Shown: positions 1,396-15,991 of the stretch, in pieces | Layout: each line of letters begins with the position of its first letter | How positions within the stretch are numbered: the first letter of the stretch is position 1 | IMG/VR virus record: IMGVR_UViG_2654588181_000004 | Length of the DNA stretch: 15,991 bases | Strand: one strand, 5' to 3' | Origin: a virus | Taxonomy: Duplodnaviria; Heunggongvirae; Uroviricota; Caudoviricetes | Made by a program: the position numbers and the translations under genes | The notes under the pieces: generated by a model | Database searches by the model: none | What the model saw: the letters and a program-made list of their open reading frames with translations, nothing else | What the model was told of the DNA's origin: nothing

Positions 1396-1446
1396 CTTAG
1401 AAACCGATCACATACAGCTGCATTTATTAAGGTTATCATCCGTTTC
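1396..1446 (+). promoter_or_regulatory. Probable cyaR promoter: CRP-like site (right half GATCACA at ~1406-1412, centred about 42 bp upstream of the RNA 5' end) and -10-like TATCAT at 1434-1439
   Basis: Seen in sequence: TCACA half-site with a weaker left half (TTAGA), and a -10-like hexamer 7 nt upstream of the putative cyaR 5' end. CyaR is known to be CRP-activated. Confidence 0.45.
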
Positions 1447-1533
1447 GCTGAAAAACATAACCCATAAAATGCTAGCTGTACCAGGAACCACCTCCTTAGC
1501 CTGTGTAATCTCCCTTACACGGGCTTATTTTTT
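1447..1533 (+). ncRNA. cyaR: CyaR (RyeE) Hfq-dependent small RNA; 3' terminator hairpin overlaps the prophage attachment core
   Basis: Sequence GCTGAAAAACATAACCCATAAAATGCTAGCTGTACCAGGAACCACCTCCTTAGCCTGTGTAATCTCCCTTACACGGGCTTATTTTTT matches my recollection of E. coli CyaR. It ends in a stem (GCCTGTGTA/TACACGGGC) plus T-run and lies between yegQ and ogr, as in E. coli K-12. Confidence 0.75.
1507..1533. repeat. Prophage attachment-site core, cyaR-proximal copy (attR-type), 27 bp AATCTCCCTTACACGGGCTTATTTTTT
   Basis: Exact 27-bp direct repeat of 15488-15514. It is the reverse complement of the P2 att core as I recall it (AAAAAATAAGCCCGTGTAAGGGAGATT). Confidence 0.8.
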
Positions 1534-1596
1534 ACGTACAACAAATTGAAATAAAAGGATTTATTTCTGGTCACGTCCACGCATTGACCACATCGA

Positions 1597-1623
1597 CAAA
1601 AAAAGCCCCTCGACTGAGGGGCT
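1597..1623 (-). terminator. Rho-independent terminator downstream of ogr (stem 1604-1611/1616-1623; U-run on minus strand from the A-run 1597-1603)
   Basis: Inverted repeat AGCCCCTC-GACT-GAGGGGCT followed by TTTTTTT on the minus strand, immediately 3' of the ogr stop. A weaker T-rich tract also follows it on the plus strand, so it may act in both directions. Confidence 0.6.
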
Positions 1624-1635
1624 TTCTGTTTGTAA

Positions 1636-1854
1636 TTACATCCACATAATTTGCTGCCCTGACGGCAACGGGTGCGGCCTCACGGCGTGGACTTCTCCCG
1701 GCTTCACGATGTATCGCTGTACCGACTCATAAGTGATGAACGTGGCGCTGCAATTCACGTTCTGACACTGGTGATAACGCTCTTTTGTCGTGTCAGTGAT
1801 ATAGCGGCTTGTACGCGCATGTGCGGCATGCTGGCATAAAGGACAATGAAACAT
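1636..1854 (-). CDS. ogr: P2 Ogr-type late-gene transcriptional activator (C4 zinc finger), 72 aa
   Basis: MFHCPLCQHAAHARTSRYITDTTKERYHQCQNVNC... carries the CxxC...CxxxxC zinc-finger pattern of the Ogr/Delta family. Start taken at the internal ATG (1854), not the upstream alternative start of the track ORF. Confidence 0.85.
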   Translation of the reverse strand: MFHCPLCQHAAHARTSRYITDTTKERYHQCQNVNCSATFITYESVQRYIVKPGEVHAVRPHPLPSGQQIMWM

Positions 1855-1935
1855 CGCGAGCACCTCTTCCGGTTTTGTTGATGGTGCCATTTTAGTCAAT
1901 TTATCCTTATAAAACAAACAGATAAACAAAACACA

Positions 1936-3099
1936 TCACTCATCATCTTCTGTTTCATACTCCACATCAGAAAGCCTGACCTCAAGTTCTAAGGACGTCG
2001 TGAAGCCGCTATTATTCAGAAAGTGAGTCACCTTAGTGATTGTCCAGTCCTGCTCGTCTATGACGCGCTTAAAGCCTGACACTTTAACTGGTGTTTCCGT
2101 GTAAATATCTGCCCGACCGGTAGCCAGGCTGATGGAGAACTCCGCCACACCCCGTTGCAGTTTATCCCACTTCGCCTGAGCGGCGCGCATGGCCTGCGCT
2201 TTCGTGGCATATACCGTGGTCAGGGCAAAAACGTTGTCAGCTTCACCGGCCATGTATTCACCTTCGCGCGCTTCCGGTACTTTTGGCGCTTTCTTCTGCG
2301 TGACTGGTTTCGCTTTCGGGTGCTCCAGTGCGCGCAGGTGTTTTTCTTTCTTTTTGCGTTTCAGTTTTACCTTCTGCTTTTGCGGCTTCGGGTCTTTGGT
2401 GTGAAGCCACTTTGCCGTTACGCCGGTATAGGCTCCACGGTCAGCAATCGCAAAATGGTGGCGGTCGCCGTCGCTGCGGGTTATGGTGACCTGCGGGATT
2501 TTTTTACCGCTGGCCGTCACCCCCTGCCCCGCTTTGAGAAACAACAGTTTTCCCATTTTTACCGAGACCTCACCGCCGTTGCGTTCTGCAAGACGGGTCA
2601 GGAATTTCGCATCAGACTCCTGCGACTGGTCGATGTGCGGAATTTTAATTCCGGCCAGTGACGGCGCGACACTGGCTTCCAGCCTGTTACGGGAGGCTAT
2701 CGCCTCAACAATCGCACCGAGCGTGGTGTCATGCCATGAGCCTTCCCGGCGGGAATTGAGCGTCCCGCGAAAATCTGCACTCCGGGCACGGATGGTGACC
2801 ACATCCGGCGCGCCCCGGTGTTCAACCTCATCAACGGTAAATTTCCCTTTGCATACCAGGGCAAAACCTTTCCAGCCGATATACACCGTCAGGACAGCGC
2901 CACGAACCGGCAGCCCGACCTGCCCGTCGGCATCGTTCAGTTCAATATCAAGCTGGTCAGCCTCAAAGCCCCGGTTATCCGTCAGGGTCATGCTCATCAG
3001 ACGGTCGCTGATATTGCCGGTAATATCCCTGCTGTCGAGCATCAGCATGTAATCCGGCGTCAGCGTACTGCCTGCATCAAATGTCAGCGTATCCAGCAT
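1936..3099 (-). CDS. D: P2 gpD-like tail protein (late control gene D), 387 aa
   Basis: 387-aa ORF, the same length as P2 gpD, directly upstream of ogr in the P2 gene order. Its ATG overlaps the stop of the upstream ORF (TAATG). Confidence 0.85.
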   Translation of the reverse strand: MLDTLTFDAGSTLTPDYMLMLDSRDITGNISDRLMSMTLTDNRGFEADQLDIELNDADGQVGLPVRGAVLTVYIGWKGFALVCKGKFTVDEVEHRGAPDVVTIRARSADFRGTLNSRREGSWHDTTLGAIVEAIASRNRLEASVAPSLAGIKIPHIDQSQESDAKFLTRLAERNGGEVSVKMGKLLFLKAGQGVTASGKKIPQVTITRSDGDRHHFAIADRGAYTGVTAKWLHTKDPKPQKQKVKLKRKKKEKHLRALEHPKAKPVTQKKAPKVPEAREGEYMAGEADNVFALTTVYATKAQAMRAAQAKWDKLQRGVAEFSISLATGRADIYTETPVKVSGFKRVIDEQDWTITKVTHFLNNSGFTTSLELEVRLSDVEYETEDDE

Positions 3100-5039
3100 T
3101 ATCCCGCCCCCGTCATACCCGTGAATTTAGTTGCCATACTGCCCGCCTTCAGCCCTTCAACCACACCGCCAAAGAATGCGCTGACAGGCTCCCAGTATTT
3201 ACGGATAAGTAACGCCCCGGCGACAATAGCGGCCACCACAGCCACAACCGGCCAGCTAATCGCCCCGATGGCGGTCATAACAGCACTGCCAACCGTCGTG
3301 AAGATTGCCCCCATTGCGCCTGCTGCCGCGATGATGGCATTAATGCCGGTGATAACCGGCCAGGCTACAAGACCAATTGCACCGATGATGCCAGTAAGCG
3401 CCAGTGCACCGCCAGCAATGATGCCGATGGTTGACGCCAGTGATTTGTTTTTCTGTATCCAGCCGTCGAGTTTTAACACATACTTTGTGGCCGTCTGCGT
3501 GAGATTACGCAGTGCGCCTTCCTGCTGGTCAAACAGGTCAGTCCCCACCGCCTCATAAGCGGACTGAAACTCTTTAAAGTCACCGCCTAGGTTGTCCTGC
3601 ATGATATTTACCAGCTCGGCGGTCTTCCCGTCTGAGGCTTTAAACGCAGCGGTCAGTTTGTCCAGCTTTCCGGTTGAGGCGGCAGTCATCAGCACGGCGG
3701 CGGCTGAGCTGGCTTCCTCCCCGAAAATGGTTTTCATGTATTCAGCCTGCTGGGCAGTACCGAGCCGGTTTTTCTCAAAACTGGCCTGCATTTCTTTCAG
3801 AATGGTAAATATTGGTCGGGTGTTTCCCTTGCTGTCTGAGGTTTTCACACCAAGCTCTTTGAGTGCATCCCATGCTTTTCCCGTCGGTGCCTGCAGGCGG
3901 CTTAACACGGCACGGCTTCCCGTCCCCGCCATTGAACCGGTAATTTTTGCATCATGCAGCGCCCCGACCATTGCGGCGGTTTCTTCAATGCTGACACCGG
4001 CATTTTTTGCCACAGGTGCGGCATAGGTCAGCGCATCGCTCATGCCGTCAAAATCGGCGGCGGTTTTGTTCATCGTCATGGAGAGAACATCCCCGATATG
4101 AGCGACCTTATCGTTTGAAAGCTGAAAGGCGGATTTCATCCCCATCAGCAGGGCGGCGTTTTCTTCCATCGTGCGACGGTTCGCCAGCGCCATATTCAGC
4201 GTGACCGGCGTTGCCGCCTGAATGGCATCAACATCCCCACCGGCTTTCGCAATGATAATCTGCGCACCGGCAGCATCATCCGCCGAGGCGGCTGTGTTGT
4301 CGCCGAGCTGGCGCGCCTGCTTGCGGAGTGCAGCCATTTCGGCGGAGTCTTTTGCCACACCGAGCACGGCCTGCAATTCTGAGTTTTTCTGCGCAAACTC
4401 ATAACCGGGCATCAGCAGCTTAACTCCGGCCATCGTTCCCGCCGCCGCAATCCCCACACCGGCAGCGCCCACTGAGGCCATATTTCCGGCCAGTTCCTTT
4501 CCTGCCTGATAACGCTGTTTGACTGCGTTAAGTTTTGCCTGTTGTGCACTGACACGCGCCAGCGCGTCACGCTGTCGGTTAAGCTGTGCGGTGGTTTCAC
4601 TGATACGGTTTTTCAGTCCCTGCTCATCATGTGCAAGATTGCGGGTATTAATTCCCACAACGGCCAGTTCCCGCTGCTGGCGTTTAACGGAATCCGTCAG
4701 GCGGTTATATTTCGCCTGTAAGTCCTCCGCCGCACGCTTTGCGGATTCCAGCAATTTCGCCTGAGCACGGGTCGGACGTTCGGTGTTTTTAAACTGTGTG
4801 GCAAGGGCTTCGGCCTCCTGCCGTGCCTTTTCAAGTGCATGACCAGTCACGGCGAGCTGTGCACTGGTCTTGCGGAATCCCTCAATACGGGATGCGTGAC
4901 CGTTCAGCTCGCGCAGTGATTTTTGTGTTTCCCGGATATCCCCCGACAGCGACTTGCTCGCTGTACGGATGGATTTAAACGGGCGGGATGCCTGGTCAAC
5001 AGCCCTGAGCAATACCTGTAATTTTACATTGTTACTCAT
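3099..5039 (-). CDS. T: Tail tape-measure protein, gpT-like, 646 aa; probably shortened at its C-terminus, with no separate gpU gene
   Basis: Long Ala/Gln-rich coiled-coil protein ending in a hydrophobic Gly/Ala-rich segment, encoded immediately after E+E'. P2 gpT is about 815 aa as I recall, followed by gpU; here the ORF stops at the D start codon. Confidence 0.7.
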   Translation of the reverse strand: MSNNVKLQVLLRAVDQASRPFKSIRTASKSLSGDIRETQKSLRELNGHASRIEGFRKTSAQLAVTGHALEKARQEAEALATQFKNTERPTRAQAKLLESAKRAAEDLQAKYNRLTDSVKRQQRELAVVGINTRNLAHDEQGLKNRISETTAQLNRQRDALARVSAQQAKLNAVKQRYQAGKELAGNMASVGAAGVGIAAAGTMAGVKLLMPGYEFAQKNSELQAVLGVAKDSAEMAALRKQARQLGDNTAASADDAAGAQIIIAKAGGDVDAIQAATPVTLNMALANRRTMEENAALLMGMKSAFQLSNDKVAHIGDVLSMTMNKTAADFDGMSDALTYAAPVAKNAGVSIEETAAMVGALHDAKITGSMAGTGSRAVLSRLQAPTGKAWDALKELGVKTSDSKGNTRPIFTILKEMQASFEKNRLGTAQQAEYMKTIFGEEASSAAAVLMTAASTGKLDKLTAAFKASDGKTAELVNIMQDNLGGDFKEFQSAYEAVGTDLFDQQEGALRNLTQTATKYVLKLDGWIQKNKSLASTIGIIAGGALALTGIIGAIGLVAWPVITGINAIIAAAGAMGAIFTTVGSAVMTAIGAISWPVVAVVAAIVAGALLIRKYWEPVSAFFGGVVEGLKAGSMATKFTGMTGAG

Positions 5040-5459
5040 TCGTGTTTCCGCTTCGCCGGAGCGCCTTTTCGCGCCATGTGATGAGTTCGGTCAGACTCAT
5101 GGGATACAGTTCTGATGGCGGCCAGTGAAATATCACTGCCACATCCGCCATCAGGTCATCGACCGACAGATTTTTCGGGAACGTCACTGCACCGAGTTCG
5201 GCGACAAAAAACCGACCACCTTACCGGCCAGCGCCACAAGGTCAGGCAGTTCCAGCGCGGCGACCTCCTGCTCGGTCAGCATCGGTGCCGTCATGCGCGG
5301 CAGCACTTTAATCAGTGCATCGACTTCGGAGTTTGCGACCGCAGCCAGACTGACACCGCGCAGCGTCCCGGCATTAGGTTTCATCAGCGTGACCTGTTCG
5401 ATAACCTGTTCACCACGTTTAACCGGATTATCCAGGGTAATGACGTTTTCTTTGTTCAT
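5032..5459 (-). CDS. gpE+E' -1 frameshift fusion product, predicted 142 aa
   Basis: Reading the -1 frame after the TTTTTTG site gives a 57-codon open extension (VAELGAVTFPKNL...RRSGNTNE) ending at a TAA that overlaps the T start. 85 + 57 = 142 aa, matching the P2 E+E' length as I recall it. Confidence 0.6.
5184..5459 (-). CDS. E: P2 gpE-like tail assembly chaperone, 91 aa (zero-frame product)
   Basis: 91-aa ORF between FII and T, the same length and position as P2 gpE. Contains the T6G slippery site near its 3' end. Confidence 0.85.
   Translation of the reverse strand: MNKENVITLDNPVKRGEQVIEQVTLMKPNAGTLRGVSLAAVANSEVDALIKVLPRMTAPMLTEQEVAALELPDLVALAGKVVGFLSPNSVQ
5205..5211 (-). other. Programmed -1 ribosomal frameshift slippery heptamer T TTT TTG (E to E+E')
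   Basis: Minus-strand sequence GGTCGGTTTTTTGTCGCC. Heptamer position and an open -1 frame are both seen in the sequence. Analogous to the lambda G/GT and P2 E/E' frameshift. Confidence 0.6.
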
Positions 5460-5515
5460 GGTTTTCTCACTTCTGAATCGGGGTTAACCGGTCAGCCAGG
5501 CTGACCGGATGAAAA

Positions 5516-6034
5516 TCACAGGCCGATATTGCGGCGGTGTTGCTCCAGCCGGTCGACGCCGTTCACCTTCTCAATCATGTTGATGGTGTCGATTTCGACC
5601 AGCTCCTTACCGTCCATCGTCAGCCGGAAATAGGTGCAGACCACGGAGATTTTCGACTCGGTGTCTTCTCCTTGTTTACCCTCGCCGGTGTCGATTTCTT
5701 TCTGACGGCCACGCATGACCACCTCGACGGCCACCGTTTCGCCGGTATCGTCGCGCTGGTAAGAGCCTGCAAAACGAATCGGCACAGCATCCACACCGGT
5801 TGCGGCGTAAAGCTCCCAGATAACCGAATCCGGGAAGCCCCCGAGCGACCACTCCATTGACAGCGCATCGTCATCAAGGCCGAGGTCTACCGGTGCGCTG
5901 CCGTTCATCCCCGCACCGCGATAGTTTTCGAGCTTACGGGTCAGTTTTGGCAGCGTGACGGACTTTGCAACGCCCTGATAGCTGTAGCCGTTCAGAAAGA
6001 CGTTCATTAACTTGAGTTTGCGCGGCATTGCCAT
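5516..6034 (-). CDS. FII: P2 gpFII-like tail tube protein, 172 aa
   Basis: 172-aa ORF, the P2 FII length, located between the FI remnant and E. Confidence 0.85.
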   Translation of the reverse strand: MAMPRKLKLMNVFLNGYSYQGVAKSVTLPKLTRKLENYRGAGMNGSAPVDLGLDDDALSMEWSLGGFPDSVIWELYAATGVDAVPIRFAGSYQRDDTGETVAVEVVMRGRQKEIDTGEGKQGEDTESKISVVCTYFRLTMDGKELVEIDTINMIEKVNGVDRLEQHRRNIGL

Positions 6035-6046
6035 CGGTCAGGCTCC

Positions 6047-6490
6047 TTAATTGCTGTTAACCGAGGTGACCAGATTTGCCAGGTATTTATCGGTAATACG
6101 CTGGCGCAGGGTCAGGTTTTCGAGAGGAGGCACCGGTGTATAGTCGTAGTCGATATACAGTTTTCCGGCCTTGAGGGTTTCCGCATCGTTGGATTCTTCG
6201 CTGAACCAGCATGAGCCATCCACTATATAGCCGTTTGTTTTCAGCTCACGGAATTTGGCATTGATGCCGTCAACGATGTCGCGAATCAGCGTTGCGGTGA
6301 TGGGCTTGTCCACCGCCCACATGTGCGCCTCAGCCATCGTGTCGGCCAGCACCTGCGCGGTGCGGGTGTAGTTTTCAAAGAGGAACAGCGGGTCATCAGA
6401 GCAGGTACGGTTACCCCAGAAGCGGAAACCGTCGCGGCGAATCAGCGTTGTGACGCCTGACTCATTAAGCAGGTCAGCATCGGTGTCCGC
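6047..6490 (-). pseudogene. FI: Tail sheath gene FI, 3' fragment only (about 150 C-terminal codons); 5' portion deleted
   Basis: Reading frame is open upstream of the track ORF up to about 6505 with no start codon (…[59 protein letters not shown]…). It then collides with an unrelated plus-strand frame. A full sheath protein would be about 390 aa. Confidence 0.7.
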
Positions 6491-6595
6491 AATGAGCTTA
6501 TCCCGTTACAGGACAGGATCCGCGAGATAAACGGCTGGCTCGGTCAGGAGGTCATCCGCTTTAAAAACTACTCACTGGACACTGACAACGGCTGA
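6491..6595 (+). pseudogene. Probable 3'-terminal fragment of the portal/capsid gene Q (…LQDRIREINGWLGQEVIRFKNYSLDTDNG*)
   Basis: Short open frame ending at TGA 6593-6595, followed by a terminator and then the cos site about 170 bp downstream. This is where the 3' end of Q lies in P2. The exact junction with FI (about 6460-6510) cannot be fixed without a reference. Confidence 0.4.
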
Positions 6596-6600
6596 ACATC

Positions 6601-6622
6601 GCCGCCTGCGGGCGGCTTTTTT
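6601..6622 (+). terminator. Rho-independent terminator (GCCGCC-TGCG-GGCGGC + TTTTTT)
   Basis: Perfect 6-bp GC stem, 4-nt loop and a T6 run directly after the Q-fragment stop. Confidence 0.65.
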
Positions 6623-6764
6623 GCACCCCGTCATCACGCCCTCACACGCTCACCACCGCACAAAACACCCCGCAGACACACCAACGCCACGGCGCACAAT
6701 CTAAACGCCATCACGACGCGCTGAGACGCTGAAAAAATAAAATCAGCACCACCGCCAGCGCGCA

Positions 6765-6783
6765 GTGCTTTCCCCGCCTCGCC
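6765..6783. other. P2-type cos site (19-nt cohesive end), present as the reverse complement GTGCTTTCCCCGCCTCGCC
   Basis: Reverse complement equals GGCGAGGCGGGGAAAGCAC, which I recall as the P2 cohesive-end sequence. Flanking sequence also resembles the P2 left end. Confidence 0.7.
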
Positions 6784-7087
6784 CGCCCGCTTCATGGGGC
6801 GGTTTTAATGCAGTTGCATGATGAAACTGAAATCACATCAGCACTGACCGAAACTGACAAAAAGAATAGTATCTGACACATGCAAAAACACGCACTTAAT
6901 ATACGCCTATCTATAGCTCCTACAGGATTGTCAAAAAACGACCAACTCGTCATAGCGTAAACACATTTGGCTCAACGAACACTTACGTTATATGCCTCTT
7001 GCACATATCAAAGTCTTAAGGTAGATCTTTACCACTAAGTGGCTATATTAAGCTGCTTTTTTACATACAATAAAAGCTTTATCGTAT

Positions 7088-7091
7088 GAGG
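7088..7091 (+). promoter_or_regulatory. Shine-Dalgarno GAGG, 7 nt upstream of the ATG of the 738-aa ORF; an AT-rich putative promoter region lies at about 6990-7080
   Basis: GAGG followed by CATAAAA then ATG. The upstream 300 bp is AT-rich with several -10-like hexamers (for example TATATT at 7044-7049), none assigned with confidence. Confidence 0.45.
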
Positions 7092-7098
7092 CATAAAA

Positions 7099-9315
7099 AT
7101 GGAACTTAGATTAAAAAATGTTACCAGTTATAAGAAAGACGCCTTCACAATACTGAATCTTGAAAAAAGAGTAAACATACTATACGGCCAAAATGGTTGT
7201 GGCAAATCTACCATTTCAAATTATTTCTACGACTCTACACACACAGATTATAACGAGTGTGAATGTACCCTTCTTGACAATTACAAACCTCTTGTTTACA
7301 ACACTAAATTTATTGAAGATAATTTCTACAATGCACAGGAACAAAAAGGTGTTTTTACATTAAGTAAAGAAAATGCAGATATTGAAAAACAATTAATTGA
7401 AAAAGAAGCAATTAAACAGCAACTTACAGAGCAATATAGACAAAAAAAAGGAGTGTTATTGAAATTAGAAGCAGAAATGGAAAAAAAAGAAAATGAATAC
7501 ATCGAATCGATCTGGAAAAAAACAGAACCAATCAGAAACTCTGTACTAAAAACCTTAATGAAAGGTAAAGTTGGCTATAAAAGACCTTTTTTTGAGATGA
7601 TAAAATCATCCTCACCAATCACCTTTATTAATTTAAATGATATAGCAAAAGAATACTCTATACTATTAGAAAATAGAAACAATGAAACCGCATTAATAAC
7701 TCCTTTACATCCATATACCCCATCAATTGATGATGTAAATACATTAGCAACACCTATAATAGATACAAGCAATAGCTATTTATCAGAAACCATTAATAAA
7801 CTTCATAATCTTGACTGGGTAAAAAAAGGTAAAGAACATTATTTAGACGGTTCTACATGTCCGTTTTGTCAGGAAAAAACTATTAGTCACGAATTTTTAA
7901 ATGCCCTTAAATCAATATTTGACGAAAGTTATTCAAAGAAAGTAAAACAGCTCTCAGATATAAAGTCAGTTTATGAGAAAAATACCATATATCATTTTAA
8001 CGAAATACAAAACAATATATCATCATGTGCACTAATCAATGAGAAAGATAAAGAGATCATTATTTCCAATATTAAAATATTGCAAAACATTGCAGAAAAA
8101 AATTTAATAAACATTATTGATAAGATCAACAATCCATCAACATGCGTTACATTAGAAATTGATAAAGAACTAGAAAATCATGTTCAGGAAAGCATAGACG
8201 CTGTTAACAAAAAAATAAGAGACATAAATGATAAGGTTAAAAAACTCAAAGAGTATGAGAATAAAATCGGAAAACAAGTTTGGGGGGCTCTCCATGCTTT
8301 TTGCAGCGATGATTTAGAGAATTTATCCAAACACAAAGAAAAATTCTTTGATATCAAAAAGAAAGTTCATGATGAATTAAATAATATTGAGCAACAAGGA
8401 AAAGAAAATAATCTCACAATAAAAGCATTGCGAGATAAAATATCTAACATTGATTCTACGATAGACTCAATAAACACCCATTTAAAAAATCTAGGGATCT
8501 CTGGTTTTTGTATTGAAAAACATGCAGAAAGAAAAGATATGTACATTATATCTCGACCAGGGCATACAAAAAACCAAAATGTTTATAGATCTCTTAGCGA
8601 AGGTGAAAAAACACTAATAACGTTTCTTTATTTTTTAGAGTGCTGTAAAGGTAAAACCGATAAAAATGATACCGATAGCAGGGATATTTTTATTGTTATT
8701 GACGATCCAATATCTAGTCTATCGCAAAACTATGTCTACGACATCGCATCAATTATTCATCACCACATTATAAAAAATGAATCAACAAAGAAGGTATTAA
8801 TCCTTACTCACAATCTTTATTTCTTTCATGAACTTATTAAGCTATCTCCTAAAAGCAGAGAAGACAAACTATTTAAGAAAAACTATTATCTAGGTAGAGT
8901 AACGAAAAATTATTTTAGTATAATTACTGAAATACAAAAAAACAGCATACAGAATGAATATCAATCTTTGTGGCAAATATTAAAAGATGCAAAAGATGGC
9001 AAAGCAAACAAAATCATAATACCTAATATTATGAGAAACATACTAGAATATTATTTTGCATTTGTTCATAGAACAGATGCTCTACAAGATGAATTAACAA
9101 AGTTGGCACGCGACGATAGCAACAGTGATTTCAAAGCATTCTACAGATACATTAACAGAGGTTCTCACTCTGATGCGGTAAATATTACTGATATGGGCGA
9201 CATAGACCCAGATAAATACCTAAAACAATTGAGAACAATATTTTCAGCTACTGGTGACGAAATGCATTATTTAAAAATGATGGACGAACTAGAAGAGGAG
9301 AACGTTACCGCTTAG
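7099..9315 (+). CDS. RloC/PrrC-like protein: ABC (Rad50/SMC-like) ATPase with coiled-coil insert and CxxC hook, plus a small C-terminal HEPN-like nuclease domain; candidate abortive-infection anticodon nuclease
   Basis: 738-aa ORF with a good SD. Walker A GQNGCGKST (aa 30-38), K/E-rich coiled-coil stretches, CPFC (aa 254-257), ABC signature-like LSEGEK (499-504), Walker B DIFIVIDDP (529-537), H-loop LILTHN (567-572). C-terminal R646-x3-E650 and R683-x6-H690 resemble the PrrC/RloC R-E-H residues. Strongly AT-rich compared with the flanking prophage genes. Confidence 0.6.
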   Translation: MELRLKNVTSYKKDAFTILNLEKRVNILYGQNGCGKSTISNYFYDSTHTDYNECECTLLDNYKPLVYNTKFIEDNFYNAQEQKGVFTLSKENADIEKQLIEKEAIKQQLTEQYRQKKGVLLKLEAEMEKKENEYIESIWKKTEPIRNSVLKTLMKGKVGYKRPFFEMIKSSSPITFINLNDIAKEYSILLENRNNETALITPLHPYTPSIDDVNTLATPIIDTSNSYLSETINKLHNLDWVKKGKEHYLDGSTCPFCQEKTISHEFLNALKSIFDESYSKKVKQLSDIKSVYEKNTIYHFNEIQNNISSCALINEKDKEIIISNIKILQNIAEKNLINIIDKINNPSTCVTLEIDKELENHVQESIDAVNKKIRDINDKVKKLKEYENKIGKQVWGALHAFCSDDLENLSKHKEKFFDIKKKVHDELNNIEQQGKENNLTIKALRDKISNIDSTIDSINTHLKNLGISGFCIEKHAERKDMYIISRPGHTKNQNVYRSLSEGEKTLITFLYFLECCKGKTDKNDTDSRDIFIVIDDPISSLSQNYVYDIASIIHHHIIKNESTKKVLILTHNLYFFHELIKLSPKSREDKLFKKNYYLGRVTKNYFSIITEIQKNSIQNEYQSLWQILKDAKDGKANKIIIPNIMRNILEYYFAFVHRTDALQDELTKLARDDSNSDFKAFYRYINRGSHSDAVNITDMGDIDPDKYLKQLRTIFSATGDEMHYLKMMDELEEENVTA

Positions 9316-9564
9316 GCCGCATATTATCGTTTTGGGTAAGAACGACGGTGCTTACGCACCGTCTCCCAACGCCCAAAGCGGTAGCGGTTGTACTGGCGTA
9401 CATTCACTAGCTTTAACATGAGGCAATCTCCATGCCAGCACTATTGTTGCCAATAGCAGCCTTTATACCCTTTGTACAAAGCTAATACCAAGAGTAATGC
9501 AAAGTAGATGTCCCAAGCGGTAACGGGGCTATTCTATGTCAAACACAGAAAAAATCAAAGCACC

Positions 9565-11829
9565 CTATGAATCCCCCCAACCATCAGCGACCGGATACGT
9601 GAATTTTTTCCCGTCATAATTTACGGTCGCTCCACGCGCCAGCGCCTCAAGCTCCCATCGCTGCGGCCTGATACCGTTCTGAGCAAGGTCAACGCGGATA
9701 CGGGTGATTTGCAATCGTTCAGACCTGGTCAGTCTGGCAGATGGTGCAATTTCATGCGGTTTTAACGGGCTTCCGTTTCTTTGCTGACGGTTTGGCGTTC
9801 TCAGGTCGTATTTTAATGCGCCCCTGAGCGCCCTCACGACCTCCGGTTCATTCCATTCAATAACACCGTCATCAACCAGATTAAGCACTGCTGCGGCGTG
9901 CTCAGAAGGTGTGGGAGCCGGTAACGAAGTATCACCACCGGTGAGCTTTCCACAGTTATTGACAGGACTCCGAGGCGCGGCGATGCCGCTTTTTAAAGTC
10001 AAAGGCTCAACGACCGGAACTTTCGGAACAATGCGCCAGTCCGTCGTTCTGGTGATATGAATATGACGCGCGCCGAGATGCGGCGCGTAAATGCCGACCA
10101 CTCTCTCGACTTCTTCCTCGTACTCGTTAACTTCATCCGACGGACTACGGGCAACCCTGACAGTCTGACAATCGCGCGGAACATTTGCCCCACCCTGCGC
10201 GCTGATATACAACGCAAAATCACCACTGTCTGCGGCGGCGCGTGCAGCCTCGACGCGTTCGTCAAACTCATCAGCAATGCTGACGCCGCGAGGCAATTTG
10301 CGTAGTTCACGGTAAGCGCCCATTGTCGGCAGGCCAACCGTTTTAAATTGCGGGATACGCCACGTTGACGCCCATGCGGTAACAGCCGCTGCAGTGTCTT
10401 TCAGCGGCCTGCCGGTATCGTTATCGAGCTGACCATCCAGTGCATAGCCGTCGATATTTTTTGAGATGTATTTTGCGATATATCCCGCAGCACCGCCCCG
10501 GTTAAGGTGTTTTGCCTGAAAACGGTTTCGCGCGGCTCCTCTTTCGTTACCATCCTCTTTGAGCGCATAGCGACGCATGATTTCGATAATCTGGTTACGC
10601 TGGCGTGGATTACAAAAAAGCATCATATGCCAGTGCGGCGTTCCGTCGTGGTGTGGCTCGACGACACGCAAACCGTAGACCTGTAAATCATTATCCTTGA
10701 ATGCCGTGCGCATCAGGCTCCAGATACGGCAGAGATAACGCTGCGCATCCTTCGGATTAAATGCCTCATCGTTCCAGCCGTGATTAAGCTGGACGGTTTT
10801 ACTTTCTCCTTTTCCGACCTGACGTGTCGGGTGATACTTTGACGGCGTGGTCAGCGTGATAAACATCCCCACATCACCCTCTGCGGCGGCGTAACGCTCA
10901 ATACCGGCAATGGTGTTCATCAGCTCCATCCGGCGAATTTCAGGATTAGAAATACTGCCCATCACCTTACTGATAAGGTCGATGCGCTCGCCGGTTTCCC
11001 TGTTTTCAAGGTCACATGATTTAAGAAACTCCAGATTTGCCTGGCGGCGCGCACGCACATCACGAATGGCATGTTTACTGGCATAAGGAGAACGGTCTTT
11101 ATTGACCTCCCCGACAGCAATCAGTAACGCCTCATGCCAGCGCATGCGCTGGCCTTTAAGCTGATGAGTCCACCACTCATCGTTAAACAGACGGGCAATG
11201 GCAGAATATGCCTGCCTCGTGGTCATCTGTCCTTTACGGTATTTTTTCCAGTAGAGAGGGGAAATATTGAAAGCTCGTGCAGCGCCAGCAACATGACCAT
11301 ACAGGTGATCCTGAGCCTCATCCGTAAACAGTGATTCTTTTTCGCCATGCGCATCCACCCAGGCATCGCTGAGTTCCTCATACATCATGAAAAGCTGCGA
11401 TGAGATACGGGCGGCAAACTTTTTCAGCTCCTTGTCATTCATTCCCGGCAGGCGCGCATAGTGGTCACGCTCTGCCAGAAACAGCAACGACGCGTCGGTG
11501 TTCATTTCATGGCGCTGATTCACACGCTCAATGCGCGGCCATAAACGACGCTGAAAAGTGGATGTGAGGAAATAAAACCCGTGTACCGGGCTTTTATTGC
11601 GCCTGATGTAGTCATAGCGTGAAGTAAACAGCGAGCGCAAAAAGTAAGGCAGGCGGTTAATCGTGGATAAAACACCTTGCACCTGACGCATCTCATCACG
11701 TGTAAGAGGTCTTTCGCGCCCGACAGCCTCGCGTGGCGCGTTCCATGCATAAGCACCGGTAAACATCTTACCGGTGCCTGCGGCAAATGCTGACGGAGGG
11801 ACAAAACGCCCGGAGGCTTTAACGGCCAT
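9565..11829 (-). CDS. A: P2 gpA-like rolling-circle replication initiator (HUH endonuclease)
   Basis: HUH motif (PHWHMMLF) and catalytic tyrosine motif (GYIAKYISKNIDG). The N-terminus MAVKASGRFVPPSAF... matches my recollection of the P2 A start; the track ORF extends 14 codons further upstream from a TTG (to 11871), which I consider less likely. Confidence 0.8.
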   Translation of the reverse strand: MAVKASGRFVPPSAFAAGTGKMFTGAYAWNAPREAVGRERPLTRDEMRQVQGVLSTINRLPYFLRSLFTSRYDYIRRNKSPVHGFYFLTSTFQRRLWPRIERVNQRHEMNTDASLLFLAERDHYARLPGMNDKELKKFAARISSQLFMMYEELSDAWVDAHGEKESLFTDEAQDHLYGHVAGAARAFNISPLYWKKYRKGQMTTRQAYSAIARLFNDEWWTHQLKGQRMRWHEALLIAVGEVNKDRSPYASKHAIRDVRARRQANLEFLKSCDLENRETGERIDLISKVMGSISNPEIRRMELMNTIAGIERYAAAEGDVGMFITLTTPSKYHPTRQVGKGESKTVQLNHGWNDEAFNPKDAQRYLCRIWSLMRTAFKDNDLQVYGLRVVEPHHDGTPHWHMMLFCNPRQRNQIIEIMRRYALKEDGNERGAARNRFQAKHLNRGGAAGYIAKYISKNIDGYALDGQLDNDTGRPLKDTAAAVTAWASTWRIPQFKTVGLPTMGAYRELRKLPRGVSIADEFDERVEAARAAADSGDFALYISAQGGANVPRDCQTVRVARSPSDEVNEYEEEVERVVGIYAPHLGARHIHITRTTDWRIVPKVPVVEPLTLKSGIAAPRSPVNNCGKLTGGDTSLPAPTPSEHAAAVLNLVDDGVIEWNEPEVVRALRGALKYDLRTPNRQQRNGSPLKPHEIAPSARLTRSERLQITRIRVDLAQNGIRPQRWELEALARGATVNYDGKKFTYPVADGWGDS

Positions 11830-12094
11830 ATGAGCCAAAAGCCTCTGAACAACGCCTGCTGAGTTGCTCAACCTGCGCGTTTAAATCAGCAAAAGACTTT
11901 GCGCTTCCGGTCAGAATATCGTGATGCATCAGGCCGGAAACGAGCTGGCTTAATTTCGGGTAATAACCAACCACCGCCAGCCATTCCTGACCGGCGTTTT
12001 TACCGCTTTCCGCTCTCTTTTTCTCGTGGAGAATAAACTGAAAGCTGTCACTGGTAACGACATAACGTTCGCCAATTTCAATACGAATACTCAT
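11819..12094 (-). CDS. Small early-region protein, unknown function (P2 orf83-position)
   Basis: 91-aa ORF in an overlapping, co-oriented string between B and A; stop overlaps the A start. Confidence 0.55.
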   Translation of the reverse strand: MSIRIEIGERYVVTSDSFQFILHEKKRAESGKNAGQEWLAVVGYYPKLSQLVSGLMHHDILTGSAKSFADLNAQVEQLSRRCSEAFGSYGR

Positions 12095-12315
12095 GCCGTT
12101 CTCCGGTAATGTTTGTTTTTTGCTTCAAAGACTGACTGACAGGAAACACAACGCGTGGCTGACGGGTAAGCCGCACGACGGGCAGCAGGTATTGGCGCGT
12201 CACACTCTTCGCAAACCAGCGCAGAAGCACCGCAATGTTTTACCCTTGCCGCGTTAATCTGGCGCTCCAGTAATTCAGCCTGTTGTTCCTGAATAAAATC
12301 TACGTTGTCCGGCAT
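12091..12315 (-). CDS. DksA/TraR-family C4 zinc-finger protein (P2 orf82-position)
   Basis: 74 aa with CEEC...x17...CVSC (Cx2C-x17-Cx2C); start overlaps the stop of the upstream ORF (ATGA). Confidence 0.65.
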   Translation of the reverse strand: MPDNVDFIQEQQAELLERQINAARVKHCGASALVCEECDAPIPAARRAAYPSATRCVSCQSVFEAKNKHYRRTA

Positions 12316-12317
12316 TA

Positions 12318-12620
12318 TCAGCTCCTTTTATCGTTAAGTTTCCTGGATACATCAGCGCAATAACTGGCAAGCTCTGTCGTTAATTTTGTCAGTTCATCCA
12401 CTGAGGAAATTTGCTTGTGGAATACAGCGCGTTTAACAAGTAAATTGACCACATCAGACAGGAGGTTTAATTCATTCTGATAAATCGCGATAACAGATTC
12501 AGTTATGTCGCGTTTTTCTTTATCAAGGCAAAGTTGAATAAGAGACAAATCGCCATTTTTCATAACGGCGATTTTTAAGGCGTTATTCAGTAATACAACT
12601 GAATGAGAACAGGACATCAA
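12318..12620 (-). CDS. Small early-region protein, unknown function (P2 orf81-position)
   Basis: 100-aa ORF, co-oriented and tightly packed with neighbours; locally more AT-rich than the flanking genes. Confidence 0.5.
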
Positions 12621-12874
12621 AGCACCTCCCCGCGAGACAATCCGATATTGTGAAATTTTTCCGACTCCTGACTGAGCAGCTCGACTATCTCCACGCGGGA
12701 TAACTCCGCCTTTGTGATATGGCGAATCATGGCGTCAAGATGAGAAGAAAAGCGTGTCGCTGCGTCGGCCTGTGCTTCGGTTCTGGCCTGTTGCAGCAGT
12801 AATGCGTATTTACCGCACTGATTTTCAGAAACTGTATGCATGACTTTCTCCAGGCAAAAAGAAGCCCCGCACAA
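12617..12874 (-). CDS. Small early-region protein, unknown function (P2 orf80-position); true start may be the internal Met
   Basis: 85-aa ORF whose stop overlaps the next start (ATGA). Confidence 0.45.
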
Positions 12875-12904
12875 TTAAGTGCGTTAAAAACTCTGGTTAA
12901 TTAC

Positions 12905-13405
12905 TTAATGCAGATATTGCTCTGGTTTTACCGACGTCAGAATTGTCGGTGCATACTCAAACAGGCTGAACAATTCACGTAATGCACGGAATAAAGCATC
13001 ACGCCAGTAACATGATTCTTCATTAATTCGCCAGTATGGCTGGTTGAATTCTTTTTCAGTCAATCCGGCATGCATAAATAAAGTACGACGCTGACTGACT
13101 GTTAAAAAACTAATATATGCATACTCACTTGCGCCAACCTGACGGCGTTTTGAGAATGCCCCACGCAATTCATCAATTGCGCAAACCAGCCGTTCACGTT
13201 CGACGTCGTTCATTTCTTCAAAACGCATCGTTGCGTGACGCTGTTTTAACTGCGCATGGAAGCAAACCGTTAGCCGTTCGCGTTCCATCATCTGATTATA
13301 ATAATCGCATGTCTCCTGCCAGCGAGGGACGGCCAGATGCTTACCAATTATCCGGCGCATAGCTGCTGGCTGTTTTTCAACGAGATTGAGCGTCATCACT
13401 GTCAT
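12905..13405 (-). CDS. B: P2 gpB-like replication protein (helicase-loader-like), 166 aa
   Basis: 166 aa, the P2 gpB length, between cox and the small ORFs preceding A. Confidence 0.8.
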   Translation of the reverse strand: MTVMTLNLVEKQPAAMRRIIGKHLAVPRWQETCDYYNQMMERERLTVCFHAQLKQRHATMRFEEMNDVERERLVCAIDELRGAFSKRRQVGASEYAYISFLTVSQRRTLFMHAGLTEKEFNQPYWRINEESCYWRDALFRALRELFSLFEYAPTILTSVKPEQYLH

Positions 13406-13572
13406 TTCCAGACCCTCCGGCTTTTCAGAAAGGTCAGAGCCTTTTTTAACGGACTCTGTTTTTTGGTGCGGATAATGATTCCCTTACGCCCCTTACCGTG
13501 GGTGATGGTGAAGTCAATCGCCCTGGGGCTTTCGTTACGCAATAACTGAGCAATACAACGAGGCTCATTCAT
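13402..13572 (-). CDS. Small basic protein (P2 orf78-position); start taken at the internal ATG
   Basis: The track ORF (13402..13596) overlaps the cox 3' end by 14 nt; the internal Met gives a 56-aa product starting just after the cox stop. Confidence 0.4.
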   Translation of the reverse strand: MNEPRCIAQLLRNESPRAIDFTITHGKGRKGIIIRTKKQSPLKKALTFLKSRRVWK

Positions 13573-13582
13573 ACGGTTCTCC

Positions 13583-13858
13583 TTAACGTGGTTCACCGAG
13601 ACCTAACCACATCAACCAGCCGTCACGAATCTCTTTAGGACGGCTTTCATAAGCCAGTTTTAGTCCGTTATTCCATGCCGGAAGGTATACCCAATATTCA
13701 CCAGCACGCCCCGATACTGACTGAGGGTCAGTAATCTCAATAACTGGTAATTTCCCTTTCTCAATCATGCCCCTTACAGCTCTTGGAGTTTTGCCAATGA
13801 GTTTTGCAAACTCCTGATAAGGCACGGCATCAGTCACGCTTACAAGCTGTCTATTCAT
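13583..13858 (-). CDS. cox: P2 Cox-like excisionase/early repressor (HTH), 91 aa
   Basis: 91 aa, the P2 Cox length, divergent from the C repressor gene and first gene of the cox-B-A operon; HTH-like segment FAKLIGKTPRAVRGMIEKGKLP. Confidence 0.75.
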   Translation of the reverse strand: MNRQLVSVTDAVPYQEFAKLIGKTPRAVRGMIEKGKLPVIEITDPQSVSGRAGEYWVYLPAWNNGLKLAYESRPKEIRDGWLMWLGLGEPR

Positions 13859-13880
13859 CTGCTACGATTCTCCCTTAGTG

Positions 13881-13901
13881 CTTCTAATGGCTCCTAATGG
13901 C
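13881..13901. promoter_or_regulatory. Tandem direct repeats (T/C)CTAATGGCT x2 in the cox/C intergenic switch region; candidate C-repressor operator half-sites at the early promoter
   Basis: Two 10-bp tandem copies seen in the 121-bp cox-C intergenic region. P2 C repressor is known to bind direct repeats flanking the -10 of the early promoter. Confidence 0.4.
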
Positions 13902-13979
13902 TAATTATTGCCTAAAAGGATAACTCCAGAAGCACAACATTTCATACCATCAGCAAGAAATTACGCAATCGGAGTAATT

Positions 13980-14279
13980 ATGTCAATAGACGTTTCGGAG
14001 AAGTTGAAGCTAATCCGTGAATCTGAAAGGTTAAACCGTAAAGAATTCAGTGAATTAACTGGTGTAGCCTACAGCTCACTTTCGAGCTATGAGAGCCGGT
14101 CAAAAAACGCTGGAGTTGAAGCCATAATGAAGGTCTTACAACATCCTAGATTTACTAAATATACTTTGTGGTTCATGACTGATCAGGTAGCTCCAGAAGC
14201 CGGGCAAATTGCGCCCGCTCTCGCACACTTTGGGCAAAACGAAACAACGTCGCCCCACTCCGGTCAAAAGACTGGTTAA
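13980..14279 (+). CDS. C: P2 C-type immunity repressor, 99 aa
   Basis: MSIDVSEKLKLIRESE...TKYTLWFMTDQVAPEAGQIAPALAHFGQNETTSPHSGQKTG closely resembles the P2 C protein as I recall it. Start taken at the internal ATG, giving the canonical 99 aa. Confidence 0.85.
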   Translation: MSIDVSEKLKLIRESERLNRKEFSELTGVAYSSLSSYESRSKNAGVEAIMKVLQHPRFTKYTLWFMTDQVAPEAGQIAPALAHFGQNETTSPHSGQKTG

Positions 14280-14394
14280 CAATTTATCGTGAATATATTC
14301 ATCACAAGTGCCTACTATTGGTGGCTAAATTTCAGCCACCACGAAAAAAGCGATTAGTAGTAGCAAAAAAAAGTACCACTCGGAGGGTTTTCTG

Positions 14395-15408
14395 ATGGCA
14401 ATCAAAAAACTCGATGATGGTCGATATGAAGTGGACATCCGCCCTACTGGACGTAACGGAAAACGCATCCGTAGGAAGTTTGATAAGAAAAGCGAAGCTG
14501 TCGCTTTCGAAAAATACACGTTGTACAACCACCACAATAAAGAATGGCTATCAAAACCAACAGACAAACGACGTCTGTCGGAACTGACACAGATCTGGTG
14601 GGATTTAAAGGGTAAACACGAAGAGCATGGGAAATCTAATCTTGGAAAAATTGAAATCTTCACAAAAATAACGAATGACCCATGCGCATTTCAAATCACG
14701 AAATCCCTTATCAGCCAGTACTGCGCCACCCGAAGAAGTCAGGGTATTAAACCTTCGAGTATCAATCGTGATTTAACATGTATTAGCGGCATGTTTACAG
14801 CCCTGATTGAAGCGGAGTTATTCTTTGGTGAGCACCCTATCAGAGGGACAAAGAGGCTTAAGGAGGAAAAACCAGAAACAGGCTATCTCACACAGGAAGA
14901 AATTGCCTTACTGCTTGCAGCACTTGACGGCGACAATAAAAAGATTGCGATTCTTTGCCTGAGTACAGGAGCACGTTGGGGAGAAGCAGCTCGTTTGAAA
15001 GCAGAAAATATCATCCATAACCGCGTCACATTTGTTAAAACGAAAACAAACAAACCACGCACCGTCCCGATCTCAGAGGCTGTTGCCAAAATGATCGCGG
15101 ATAACAAACGAGGTTTTTTATTCCCTGATGCTGATTACCCTCGCTTCAGACGAACAATGAAAGCAATAAAACCGGATTTGCCAACGGGGCAAGCCACACA
15201 TGCACTAAGGCACAGCTTTGCCACTCATTTCATGATTAATGGAGGAAGTATTATCACGCTACAACGGATACTAGGTCACACGCGGATTGAGCAAACTATG
15301 GTTTACGCTCATTTTGCGCCAGAGTACCTTCAGGACGCCATTTCTCTTAATCCGCTAAGAGGTGGTACTGAGGCCGAGAGTGTCCACACAGTGTCCACAG
15401 TAGAGTAA
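14395..15408 (+). CDS. int: P2-type tyrosine integrase, 337 aa
   Basis: 337 aa, the P2 Int length, with tyrosine-recombinase catalytic motifs (HALRHSFATHF; LGHTRIEQTMVYAH). Adjacent to the att core at the prophage end. Confidence 0.9.
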   Translation: MAIKKLDDGRYEVDIRPTGRNGKRIRRKFDKKSEAVAFEKYTLYNHHNKEWLSKPTDKRRLSELTQIWWDLKGKHEEHGKSNLGKIEIFTKITNDPCAFQITKSLISQYCATRRSQGIKPSSINRDLTCISGMFTALIEAELFFGEHPIRGTKRLKEEKPETGYLTQEEIALLLAALDGDNKKIAILCLSTGARWGEAARLKAENIIHNRVTFVKTKTNKPRTVPISEAVAKMIADNKRGFLFPDADYPRFRRTMKAIKPDLPTGQATHALRHSFATHFMINGGSIITLQRILGHTRIEQTMVYAHFAPEYLQDAISLNPLRGGTEAESVHTVSTVE

Positions 15409-15487
15409 CGTTTAAGGGCTTTCAGTGGTAATTTATGCCGCTCAAACCCGCATTGTACCGTTGAAAGCCCCTACTGGTGACACCCTA

Positions 15488-15514
15488 AATCTCCCTTACA
15501 CGGGCTTATTTTTT
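15488..15514. repeat. Prophage attachment-site core, int-proximal copy (attL-type), 27 bp AATCTCCCTTACACGGGCTTATTTTTT
   Basis: Exact direct repeat of 1507-1533, located about 80 bp downstream of the int stop. Confidence 0.8.
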
Positions 15515-15673
15515 TATGCATAAGCCCTATCTCTGGTAACCGTCTTCCATTGACCACATCGATAGAATCCTCCTTCATAGCACGATGCCTTTCACTTATC
15601 GGCATCGTGCTCCCACAGGTTCCGGCTACGCACAGCCAGAACGCGCATATTTGACGCTTACCAAAAAATATTC

Positions 15674-15991
15674 TCACTCTCCACATTTGAATGTCAGACG
15701 AGCGACACCATGTAATCCTACACCTTCTGTCTTCAGCTCAACTATTTGCATTTTTTTGCCCTGAGTAACACAGAAATGAGTTGCATCATTTTTTACTATA
15801 TTTTCTGCACCAGATATTCTACCCCTGGCTAAAGAAGCTTCGGCTTCGGTGTAGTATTGGTTATCGAGTTTACGCTGAATATTACTTTTATATGCAAGAC
15901 CAAATTTACCGATACTTGTCTCATCATTATGCACAGCACAACCAGACATAATAAAAATACTAATTAATGATATAGCAGCTATCTTTTTCAT
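15674..15991 (-). CDS. yegR: Small putative lipoprotein YegR, 105 aa (signal peptide with lipobox-like SGC)
   Basis: MKKIAAISLISIFIMSGCAV... is a typical lipoprotein signal. 105 aa and position after the P2 remnant match my recollection of E. coli yegR. The start codon is at the last base of the window. Confidence 0.6.
   Translation of the reverse strand: MKKIAAISLISIFIMSGCAVHNDETSIGKFGLAYKSNIQRKLDNQYYTEAEASLARGRISGAENIVKNDATHFCVTQGKKMQIVELKTEGVGLHGVARLTFKCGE

Follow-up and report, generated by a model that had tools for sequence, protein, structure and literature searches.

The window considered here, a stretch of 15,991 bp, is E. coli chromosome running from yegQ/trhP (1-1362) to yegR (15674-15991), and we are highly confident that it holds a 14.0-kb defective P2-like (Peduovirus) prophage at cyaR, in which a single non-homologous deletion of about 16-18 kb joined a remnant of the sheath gene FI (FI') to a remnant of the portal gene Q (Q') and a further, 1-kb deletion fused the tail genes T and U in frame. 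The original prediction had described the element as a large internal-deletion derivative of a P2-like prophage, with FI' joined to Q', the terminator tQ, and cos, and that description was borne out by alignments that are colinear with one break, at 6484/6485; the coordinates that it gave were all correct. The element is most likely the outcome of ordinary prophage decay through one or two illegitimate joining events, in which broken or slipped DNA would have been joined by an illegitimate, microhomology-type process. Such joining would have removed the lethal and structural genes, leaving the lysogeny/excision and replication modules, ogr, cos, and the gene at the hotspot next to cos.

A P2-Type Prophage at the cyaR Site

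The P2-type prophage sits between yegQ/trhP and yegR in reverse P2 orientation and measures 14,008 bp, as against 33,593 bp for P2. Its elements follow one another in the order CyaR, att core, ogr, D, truncated T, E, FII, FI', Q', tQ, cos, a gene of the AAA_13 type, A, orf83-80, B, orf78, cox, C, int, and att core; the succession of the phage genes from ogr to Q' and from A to int is that of P2 according to BLASTN and TBLASTN, which result places the element among the P2-like prophages. The attachment site is the 3' end of cyaR, and the CyaR sRNA gene (1445-1530, plus strand; Rfam RF00112, 100.7 bits, E=1.5e-19) overlaps the left, ogr-side copy of the att core at 1507-1533. That copy and the int-side copy at 15488-15514 form a 27-bp perfect direct repeat, and both are identical to the attP core of P2 (24356-24382). 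The cyaR site is among the tabulated attachment sites of P2 (PMC3032704); integration at that site, together with the duplicated att core, is of the P2-like (Peduovirus) kind.

The FI'-Q' Junction

Upon comparison with the P2 genome (NC_001895) by BLASTN, window positions 3143-6485 corresponded to P2 21746-18404 at 97.5% identity, an interval spanning T, E, FII, and the 3' end of FI, and positions 6484-6783 corresponded to P2 298-1 at 94.3% identity (E=1e-129), an interval spanning the 3' end of Q, tQ, and cos. With alignments to P2 at E=0, chance is not a concern. In three-way alignments with P2 and the prophages of strains 401651 and OkiPb01681, the FI-side parent matches through 6485 and the Q-side parent from 6484, the overlap being the dinucleotide TG alone (6484-6485, common to P2 18404-18405 and 297-298, and CA on the other strand); FI codon 251/252 is thereby joined to Q codon 308/309. 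The switch of strand and reading frame that had been predicted to occur within 6460-6510 is consequently placed at this TG, and the endpoints and microhomology—for which the original prediction had looked to an alignment with P2—are a break at 6484/6485 that joins P2 18404 to 298 with a 2-bp overlap.

To the left of the junction lies FI' (6047-6485, minus strand), consisting of the last 145 codons of the gene (6484-6050) plus the stop at 6047-6049, in agreement with the roughly 150 open codons devoid of a start that had been reported on the minus strand. These 145 codons are 97.9% identical to gpFI residues 252-396 (TBLASTN). The remnant has no pF promoter, and it has no native start because an in-frame TAA at 6506-6508 closes the FI frame just upstream of the junction and the earliest in-frame start is a GTG at 6352; gene callers predict only a 91-aa open reading frame in it, from an internal ATG at 6322.

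To the right of the junction lies Q' (6485-6595, plus strand), which comprises the last 36 codons of the portal gene (6485-6592) and the stop at 6593-6595, as assigned by BLASTN and TBLASTN against P2 and by a check of the frame, so that the plus-strand frame ending at 6595 is indeed Q-derived. This remnant is followed by tQ, the rho-independent terminator of the P-Q operon (6601-6622, plus strand), which element is identical to the reverse complement of P2 160-181 and was also detected by a terminator scan, and then by the 19-nt cohesive-end sequence cos (6765-6783), whose reverse complement, GGCGAGGCGGGGAAAGCAC, is the same as P2 1-19. The terminator at 6601-6622 and the 19-mer at 6765-6783, both recognized in the original prediction, are therefore tQ and cos of P2. 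The conserved region around cos extends over about 6720-6812, and its flanks align to both ends of P2; the element accordingly contains a cos of the P2 type, with 19-nt cohesive ends and adjoining Q.

Extent of the Deletion and Genes Lost

With respect to P2 the missing interval is 297-18403 (equivalently 299-18405), or 18,107 bp, whereas the gap amounts to 17,067 bp with respect to the intact prophage of strain 401651 and to 16,201 bp with respect to that of OkiPb01681, at the same window position, 6484/6485. The loss of about 18 kb that had been predicted therefore stands for P2, and comes to 16.2-17.1 kb for the nearest intact relatives. Colinearity with those relatives, a gap that is in the relatives only, and the presence of both prophage ends are together the marks of an internal deletion.

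When all the P2 proteins were searched against the window by TBLASTN, no trace was found of P, O, N, M, L, X, Y, K, lysA, lysB, R, S, orf30, V, W, J, I, H, G, or fun(Z); since none of the genes between Q and FI gave a match, the whole head, lysis, and tail-fibre block is gone, as the original prediction maintained. The late promoter upstream of FI has gone with it, also in line with that prediction, for both the activator site and the point of initiation of pF (P2 17555-17628) fall within the deleted interval; the remaining tail genes are promoterless. A single deletion would have taken most of Q, the genes P through G, the holin, the endolysin, lysA/B/C, and the cargo at the Z/fun position, and the same event would have taken the pP/pO, pV, and pF promoters along with the first 251 codons of FI.

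The element does not, then, have the gene content of an intact P2-like prophage: 17 essential late genes are without a match, Q is reduced to 36 codons and FI to 145, T is truncated, and U is absent (TBLASTN). Neither does it have that of an R-type tailocin, in that the sheath is truncated, T and U are fused, and the baseplate, fibre, and lysis genes are absent (TBLASTN). The inability to make virions follows soundly from this gene content; the element would be unable to build heads or tails or to lyse the cell, and for that reason we infer that it is harmless to the host.

A Second Deletion, between T and U

The tail region contains a second deletion, which did not figure in the original prediction. 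There, an in-frame fusion of T and U (T'::U'; 3099-5039, minus strand) was recognized by BLASTN, TBLASTN, and the Pfam family PhageMin_Tail. About 1,001 bp are missing, corresponding to P2 about 21740-22740, and alignment with strain 401651 places the T'-U' junction at a 2-bp TT overlap at 3148-3149. Residues 1-632 of T are present, with T residue about 630 fused in frame to the last codons of U, and gpU gave no match in the window (TBLASTN). Together with the break in FI, this fusion leaves the tail module interrupted at two points.

Parentage and Age of the Deletion Derivative

The left arm of the element (3143-6485) is 99.94% identical to the intact prophage that strain 401651 carries at the same cyaR site—T, U, and FI being complete there—and 98.0% identical to the next-best genome. 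On the right, positions 9600-15400 are 100% identical to the full-length prophage of strain KOr024, and positions 6484-15991 are 99.4% identical to the full-length prophage of strain OkiPb01681. Over the Q-cos segment, identity is 97.2-97.6% with strains 401651 and KOr024 but 99.4% with OkiPb01681. Among the known prophages there is none that reaches 99.9% identity in both arms.

That the nearest relative of the left arm (401651, 99.94%) is different from those of the right arm (OkiPb01681 and KOr024, 99.4-100%), and that the left arms of OkiPb01681 and KOr024 are only about 97% identical to the window, would fit an origin of the FI'-Q' joint through illegitimate recombination between two P2-like genomes, either a resident and a superinfecting one or a tandem pair. 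We consider such an origin unlikely. The nearest relative also changes at about 6802, off the junction, where KOr024 passes from 97.2% identity over Q-cos to 99.8-100% rightward, and the order and orientation of the segments are exactly as for a simple deletion. Fine-scale mosaicism is typical of P2-like phages, and for this reason a single mosaic parent is the simpler explanation; the direct parent of this deletion derivative would thus be a mosaic lying outside the collections, as the comparison of the arms suggests. The deletions themselves are probably recent in evolutionary terms, given that the arms which survive match intact prophages at 99.9-100% identity and that all the other genes are undisrupted.

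Retained Genes and Functions

The genes surviving outside the deletion junctions are full length (TBLASTN). On the minus strand, the element keeps intact the late-gene activator ogr (1636-1854; 72/72 residues at 100% identity to P2 Ogr by TBLASTN), the tail gene D (1936-3099; 387 aa, 99.0% identity to P2 gpD), the tail gene E (5184-5459; 91/91 aa, 98.9% identity to P2 gpE), and the tail tube gene FII (5516-6034; 172/172 aa, 100% identity to P2 gpFII). The same strand carries the full-length replication gene A, which contains ori (9565-11829; gpA residues 1-751 at 98.8% by TBLASTN; Pfam Phage_GPA), and the early operon of cox, orf78, B, and orf80-83, all full length (11819-13858; TBLASTN). The plus strand encodes the immunity repressor C (13980-14279), which is 64.6% identical to its P2 counterpart (TBLASTN) and heteroimmune to P2—there is no DNA similarity to P2 across 13837-14149 by BLASTN—and an intact integrase (14395-15408; 337/337 aa, 99.7% identity to P2 Int).

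The accessory gene (7099-9315, plus strand) encodes a 738-aa AAA_13 ATPase (Pfam PF13166, E=8e-111) that matches PDC-S06, a candidate system in PADLOC (E=3e-254), its similarity to PrrC being weak. The gene occupies the cos-proximal hotspot, the position of old and tin in P2, and passages of the work by Rousset et al. describe a defence hotspot between gpA and gpQ of P2-like phages (PMC9122126). We regard this locus as a candidate defence gene, apparently intact. The functions for excision (int, cox, and the two perfect att cores) and for replication (A, B, and ori) are likewise still carried, as is the packaging site, and from this content the element may be competent to excise.

The retention of int, cox, both att cores, A, B, ori, ogr, cos with its conserved flanks, and an intact hotspot gene—a set also retained in the independent remnants E24377A, PE15, L3452210II, SRY157, F247, and W13-16—speaks in favour of a selected, helper-dependent mini-P2 that, in the manner of a satellite, would excise, replicate, be packaged at cos by a P2-like helper, and spread the defence gene. 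To our judgement that proposal is nevertheless improbable. Retention is inconsistent, in that the remnants 38A23CPO011, DLI.5a, and strain 167 lose cos and part of A; the FI'-Q' junction is confined to a single strain and gives no indication of having spread; there is no gene for capsid size or for the exploitation of a helper, each sizeable open reading frame being either a P2 homologue or the one cargo gene; a length of 14 kb is far below the capacity of the P2 head; and useless fragments of tail genes favour decay over design. The genes of P4-like satellites are the alpha primase-helicase, sid/psu for capsid-size control, and delta/epsilon; cos alone is common to the element and such satellites, the open reading frames in 1507-15514 being homologues of P2 genes with the exception of the AAA_13 gene (open-reading-frame homology, Pfam, and PADLOC).

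Reality and Distribution of the Junction

Contig FNIS01000001.1 of the draft assembly GCA_900103855.1 matches the window at 100% identity, and both the FI'-Q' and the T-U junctions are also present in a separate Logan assembly of SRR4218895; these two assemblies, though made with different software, may share the strain or even the reads and are not independent biological replicates. That pieces of one or two P2-like prophages were misjoined during assembly—as the draft status of the source might suggest, and as might the ending of the junction-bearing Logan contig 4 nt past cos, which points to a repeated cos region elsewhere in the genome—is very improbable, for only 2 bp are common at the join while assembler misjoins run through long repeats, different software arrived at the same two junctions, the join is situated 6.5 kb inside a 533-kb contig region, flanked on both sides by the expected host genes and the perfect att repeats in the arrangement of one prophage at one attachment site, and many analogous structures are found in finished genomes.

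The FI'-Q' junction is spanned by no record among 5,426 complete E. coli genomes (megablast of 6285-6685), and an exact match to the 24-nt junction occurred neither in the GTDB species representatives nor in the JGI metagenome contigs; an exact look-up of the T'::U' fusion protein, for its part, returned the source contig and the Logan contig only. The FI'-Q' junction is private to one strain or lineage.

Other Late-Block Deletions in Complete Genomes

Complete E. coli genomes contain at least 12 further independent deletions of the late block, as detected with three synthetic two-piece queries, to which only compact derivatives give one joined match. Because about 2,200 of the 5,426 complete genomes carry P2-like sequence, derivatives of this sort are uncommon but well represented. 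Expressed as the left and right P2 positions, the junctions are 1457/18476 in the SRY157 group and EH01-18-02, 2666/18463 in E423, 1457/18031 in 01G17CRGN001, 2627/18222 in FG92-1, 936/18222 in F247, 1502/19067 in PE15 (FII'-P'), 1977/19107 in L3452210II (also FII'-P'), about 603/19404 in W13-16, 753/19611 in E24377A (E'-Q'), 5505/18998 in the isolateD group and 38A23CPO011, 5056/18476 in the E3 group, and 3720/18032 in AF44.

These derivatives (E24377A, PE15, L3452210II, SRY157, F247, W13-16, and others) resemble the window in that the central late region is gone; their left-hand breaks fall in Q, P, O, N, or M and their right-hand breaks in FI, FII, or E, and the microhomology is of 0-4 bp, or of 8 bp in one case. 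They often keep cos, the hotspot cargo, and the early region, as the window does, and several bear a second deletion, again like the window. Each has its own junction, however, and none joins FI 18404 to Q 298. The kind of object is thus already known, and the window is a further instance of it.

Reused Breakpoints in the Sheath Gene

When the 91-aa FI fragment was looked up by exact match, four more deletion contigs came to light, whose junctions correspond to P2 1502/18475 (L012), 2650/18476 (L013), 18036/18474 (L014), and about 3498/18404 (L015, O'-FI'); at five of the ten places that the look-up returned (L016-L020) the contig ends inside FI, and these were discarded as not being deletions. 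The contig L015 shares with the window the exact FI breakpoint (P2 18404, GGCACC) and the CA microhomology, but differs in the partner and in the FI allele. Given the 178-nt range visible to the look-up, the chance of that coincidence is about 0.017.

FI has only two GGTAACC sites, at P2 18029 and 18474. Of the 13 events recovered free of positional bias, 4 have their right end at one of these sites (binomial P=4e-6); the query that yielded two of the 4 was made once the pattern was already apparent. Both sites are also used in three Logan contigs, and a simulation of uniform breakpoints that modelled the bias of the look-up gave P=5e-6 for the clustering of the right ends. The microhomologies at the two GGTAACC hubs are TAAC, GTA, TA, AA, and GGTAACCG, and that at the window's site is CA; at the FI hubs they always fall within GTAAC or GCAC, and the partner site ranges from Q to N. 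The left-hand sites 1457 and 1502 were each used twice, with different partners. All the junctions were read by eye from three-line alignments, since allelic differences in the vicinity of the junctions confounded the automated calling of microhomology against P2.

That one end is constant and its partner varies suggests end joining after a break at a specific site. We therefore put forward, tentatively, the possibility that the FI breakpoints, reused as they are by independent deletions in unrelated P2-like prophages, are non-random and reflect a sequence-directed DNA break in P2-like prophages or in incoming phage DNA, with subsequent joining of the ends, which proposal rests on 16 junctions and is partly post hoc. 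The candidate causes of such a break would include a nuclease, a nick by a replication initiator, or a topoisomerase, and a single step of this kind would convert a phage to a harmless remnant still in possession of the lysogeny module and the defence cargo.

Three particular agents were evaluated. A GGTNACC (BstEII/Eco91I-type) restriction enzyme was rejected in its simple form, for the three GGTCACC sites in FI were never used, only the GGTAACC sites. Nicking by the P2 A protein at ori-like sites was not convincing either: neither 18474 nor 18222 has a GGAGTC, and the junctions are displaced from that motif by a few nucleotides in the downstream direction. As for P2 Int acting at secondary sites, the similarity to the att core was confined to GTAA and likewise failed to convince.

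Two further observations concern the sequence about these breakpoints. The motif GGAGTC starts at the annotated ori nick position, 29892, and is also found just upstream of P2 18029 and 18404. In addition, GG stands just 5' of the crossover in the right-hand parents at 8 of the 12 distinct sites (background, 0.14), in an unscripted hand count that was made post hoc, and this apparent enrichment was absent in the hold-out left parents.

Implications and Comparison with Known Systems

In annotation the element should be labelled a defective P2-like prophage and not an inducible phage, there being no capsid or lysis genes and no complete set of tail genes. Excision and replication may nonetheless persist, and the element continues to provide Ogr and a candidate anti-phage gene. 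In itself the element matters little. The survey yields a catalogue of independent one-step deletions of the late block in P2-like prophages and, with it, of reused breakpoints in the sheath gene, which reuse is the only part that might repay more work: were it to reflect a specific DNA-breaking activity, it would supply a concrete, testable way for E. coli to render P2-type prophages harmless without losing the useful cargo.

Compared with P2 (NC_001895), the element shares the gene order, and its two arms are 94-98% identical in DNA sequence, with an identical 19-mer at cos, an identical tQ, and an identical 27-bp att core; at the protein level the identity is 99.7% for Int and 100% for both Ogr and FII. 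Unlike P2, the element is without the intervals 297-18403 and about 21740-22740, has another repressor (64.6%), and carries a different gene in place of old and tin.

Remnants of P2 at the cyaR site have been tabulated for K-12 (ogr-D') and for E. coli B (P2*B) (PMC3032704), and the element is like these in its attachment site and in being a P2-type prophage shrunk by deletion. The K-12 remnant, however, consists of ogr and part of D only, whereas in the element described here both ends, cos, several tail genes, and the early region in its entirety are retained, with no further decay of the sequence.

Defective P2-like elements that retain intact defence genes are described as a class, and in statistical terms, in passages of PMC13586616; neither the FI'-Q' junction nor the reuse of breakpoints was found in the passages of that work or in those of PMC9122126. 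With the class as those passages present it, the element shares a non-functional P2-like constitution and an apparently intact hotspot gene between gpA and cos/gpQ.

Breakpoint reuse in the sheath gene

We observed that the breakpoints within FI, the sheath gene, were used again by independent deletions of the late block in unrelated P2-like prophages. The reused positions, as determined from the loci L012–L015 and L023–L032, lie at P2 coordinates 18029, 18222, 18404, and 18474 (NC_001895), of which the last two correspond approximately to 6415–6485 of the window. The O'|FI' deletion in SRR25824596 has the same FI breakpoint as the window, and the left-hand sites at P2 1457 and 1502 were each used twice. 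FI contains just two GGTAACC sites, and these served as breakpoints in 4 of the 13 events recovered without bias (P = 4e-6), two of those four having come from a query run after the pattern had been noticed; and three Logan contigs break at the GGTAACC sites as well.

FI is also interrupted by insertion. In the P2-like prophage of strain KOr024 (L008), an ISEc12 element of the IS21 family lies inside the gene (17797–20099 of that locus), which insertion is a further, IS-mediated route of inactivation. ISEc12 is likewise annotated somewhere within the best matches to the window from APEC O1 and ATCC 11775, and a large deletion in strain 167 is bordered by the IS.

Second deletion in the tail genes

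Loss of about 1,001 bp in a second deletion has produced a T'::U' fusion gene (3099–5039; junction at 3148–3149), in which residues 1 to ~630 of the tape-measure gene T are joined in frame to the final codons of U, with a 2-bp overlap (TT) at the joint. The element lacks gpU. Outside the source contig, the exact fusion protein was found in a single Logan contig only.

Surroundings of cos and the hotspot cargo

The Logan contig that carries the FI'|Q' junction (L005, SRR4218895_49) crosses that junction and stops 4 nt beyond the cos 19-mer, at the equivalent of window position 6787; a second cos-bearing element in the same genome, either P2-like or P4-like, that broke the assembly graph would fit such an end. 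At the final base of the 19-mer there begins a GC-rich hairpin with a run of T residues behind it (6783–6802), within a stretch aligned at 97.9% to the right end of P2, and this candidate second terminator could shield the hotspot gene from read-through of the P-Q operon.

That gene (7099–9315), located in the old/tin hotspot of P2 adjoining cos, encodes a 738-aa AAA_13 ATPase, which is assigned to the PADLOC candidate system PDC-S06 and has weak similarity to PrrC. The hotspot segment (6486–9568) matches intact P2-like prophages in many E. coli over its full length at 99.0–99.5% identity.

Chromosome records beginning at gene A

Several records of finished E. coli chromosomes appear to have been rotated, such that their numbering begins with the first base of a P2-like replication gene A. 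Annotation confirms this for NZ_CP076527.1; for NZ_CM129038.1, NZ_OW967003.1, NZ_AP029046.1, and NZ_CP058618.1, it is judged from the query matching at identical coordinates of the record. Start-fixing software that takes gpA for a replicon initiator is the likely cause. The prophage is thereby split over the record ends and escapes simple searches.

Immunity region

At the DNA level, no similarity to P2 is seen in the immunity region (13837–14149). The C repressor (13980–14279) shares only 64.6% identity with that of P2, and Cox shares 83.5%. From these differences the remnant is predicted to be heteroimmune to P2.
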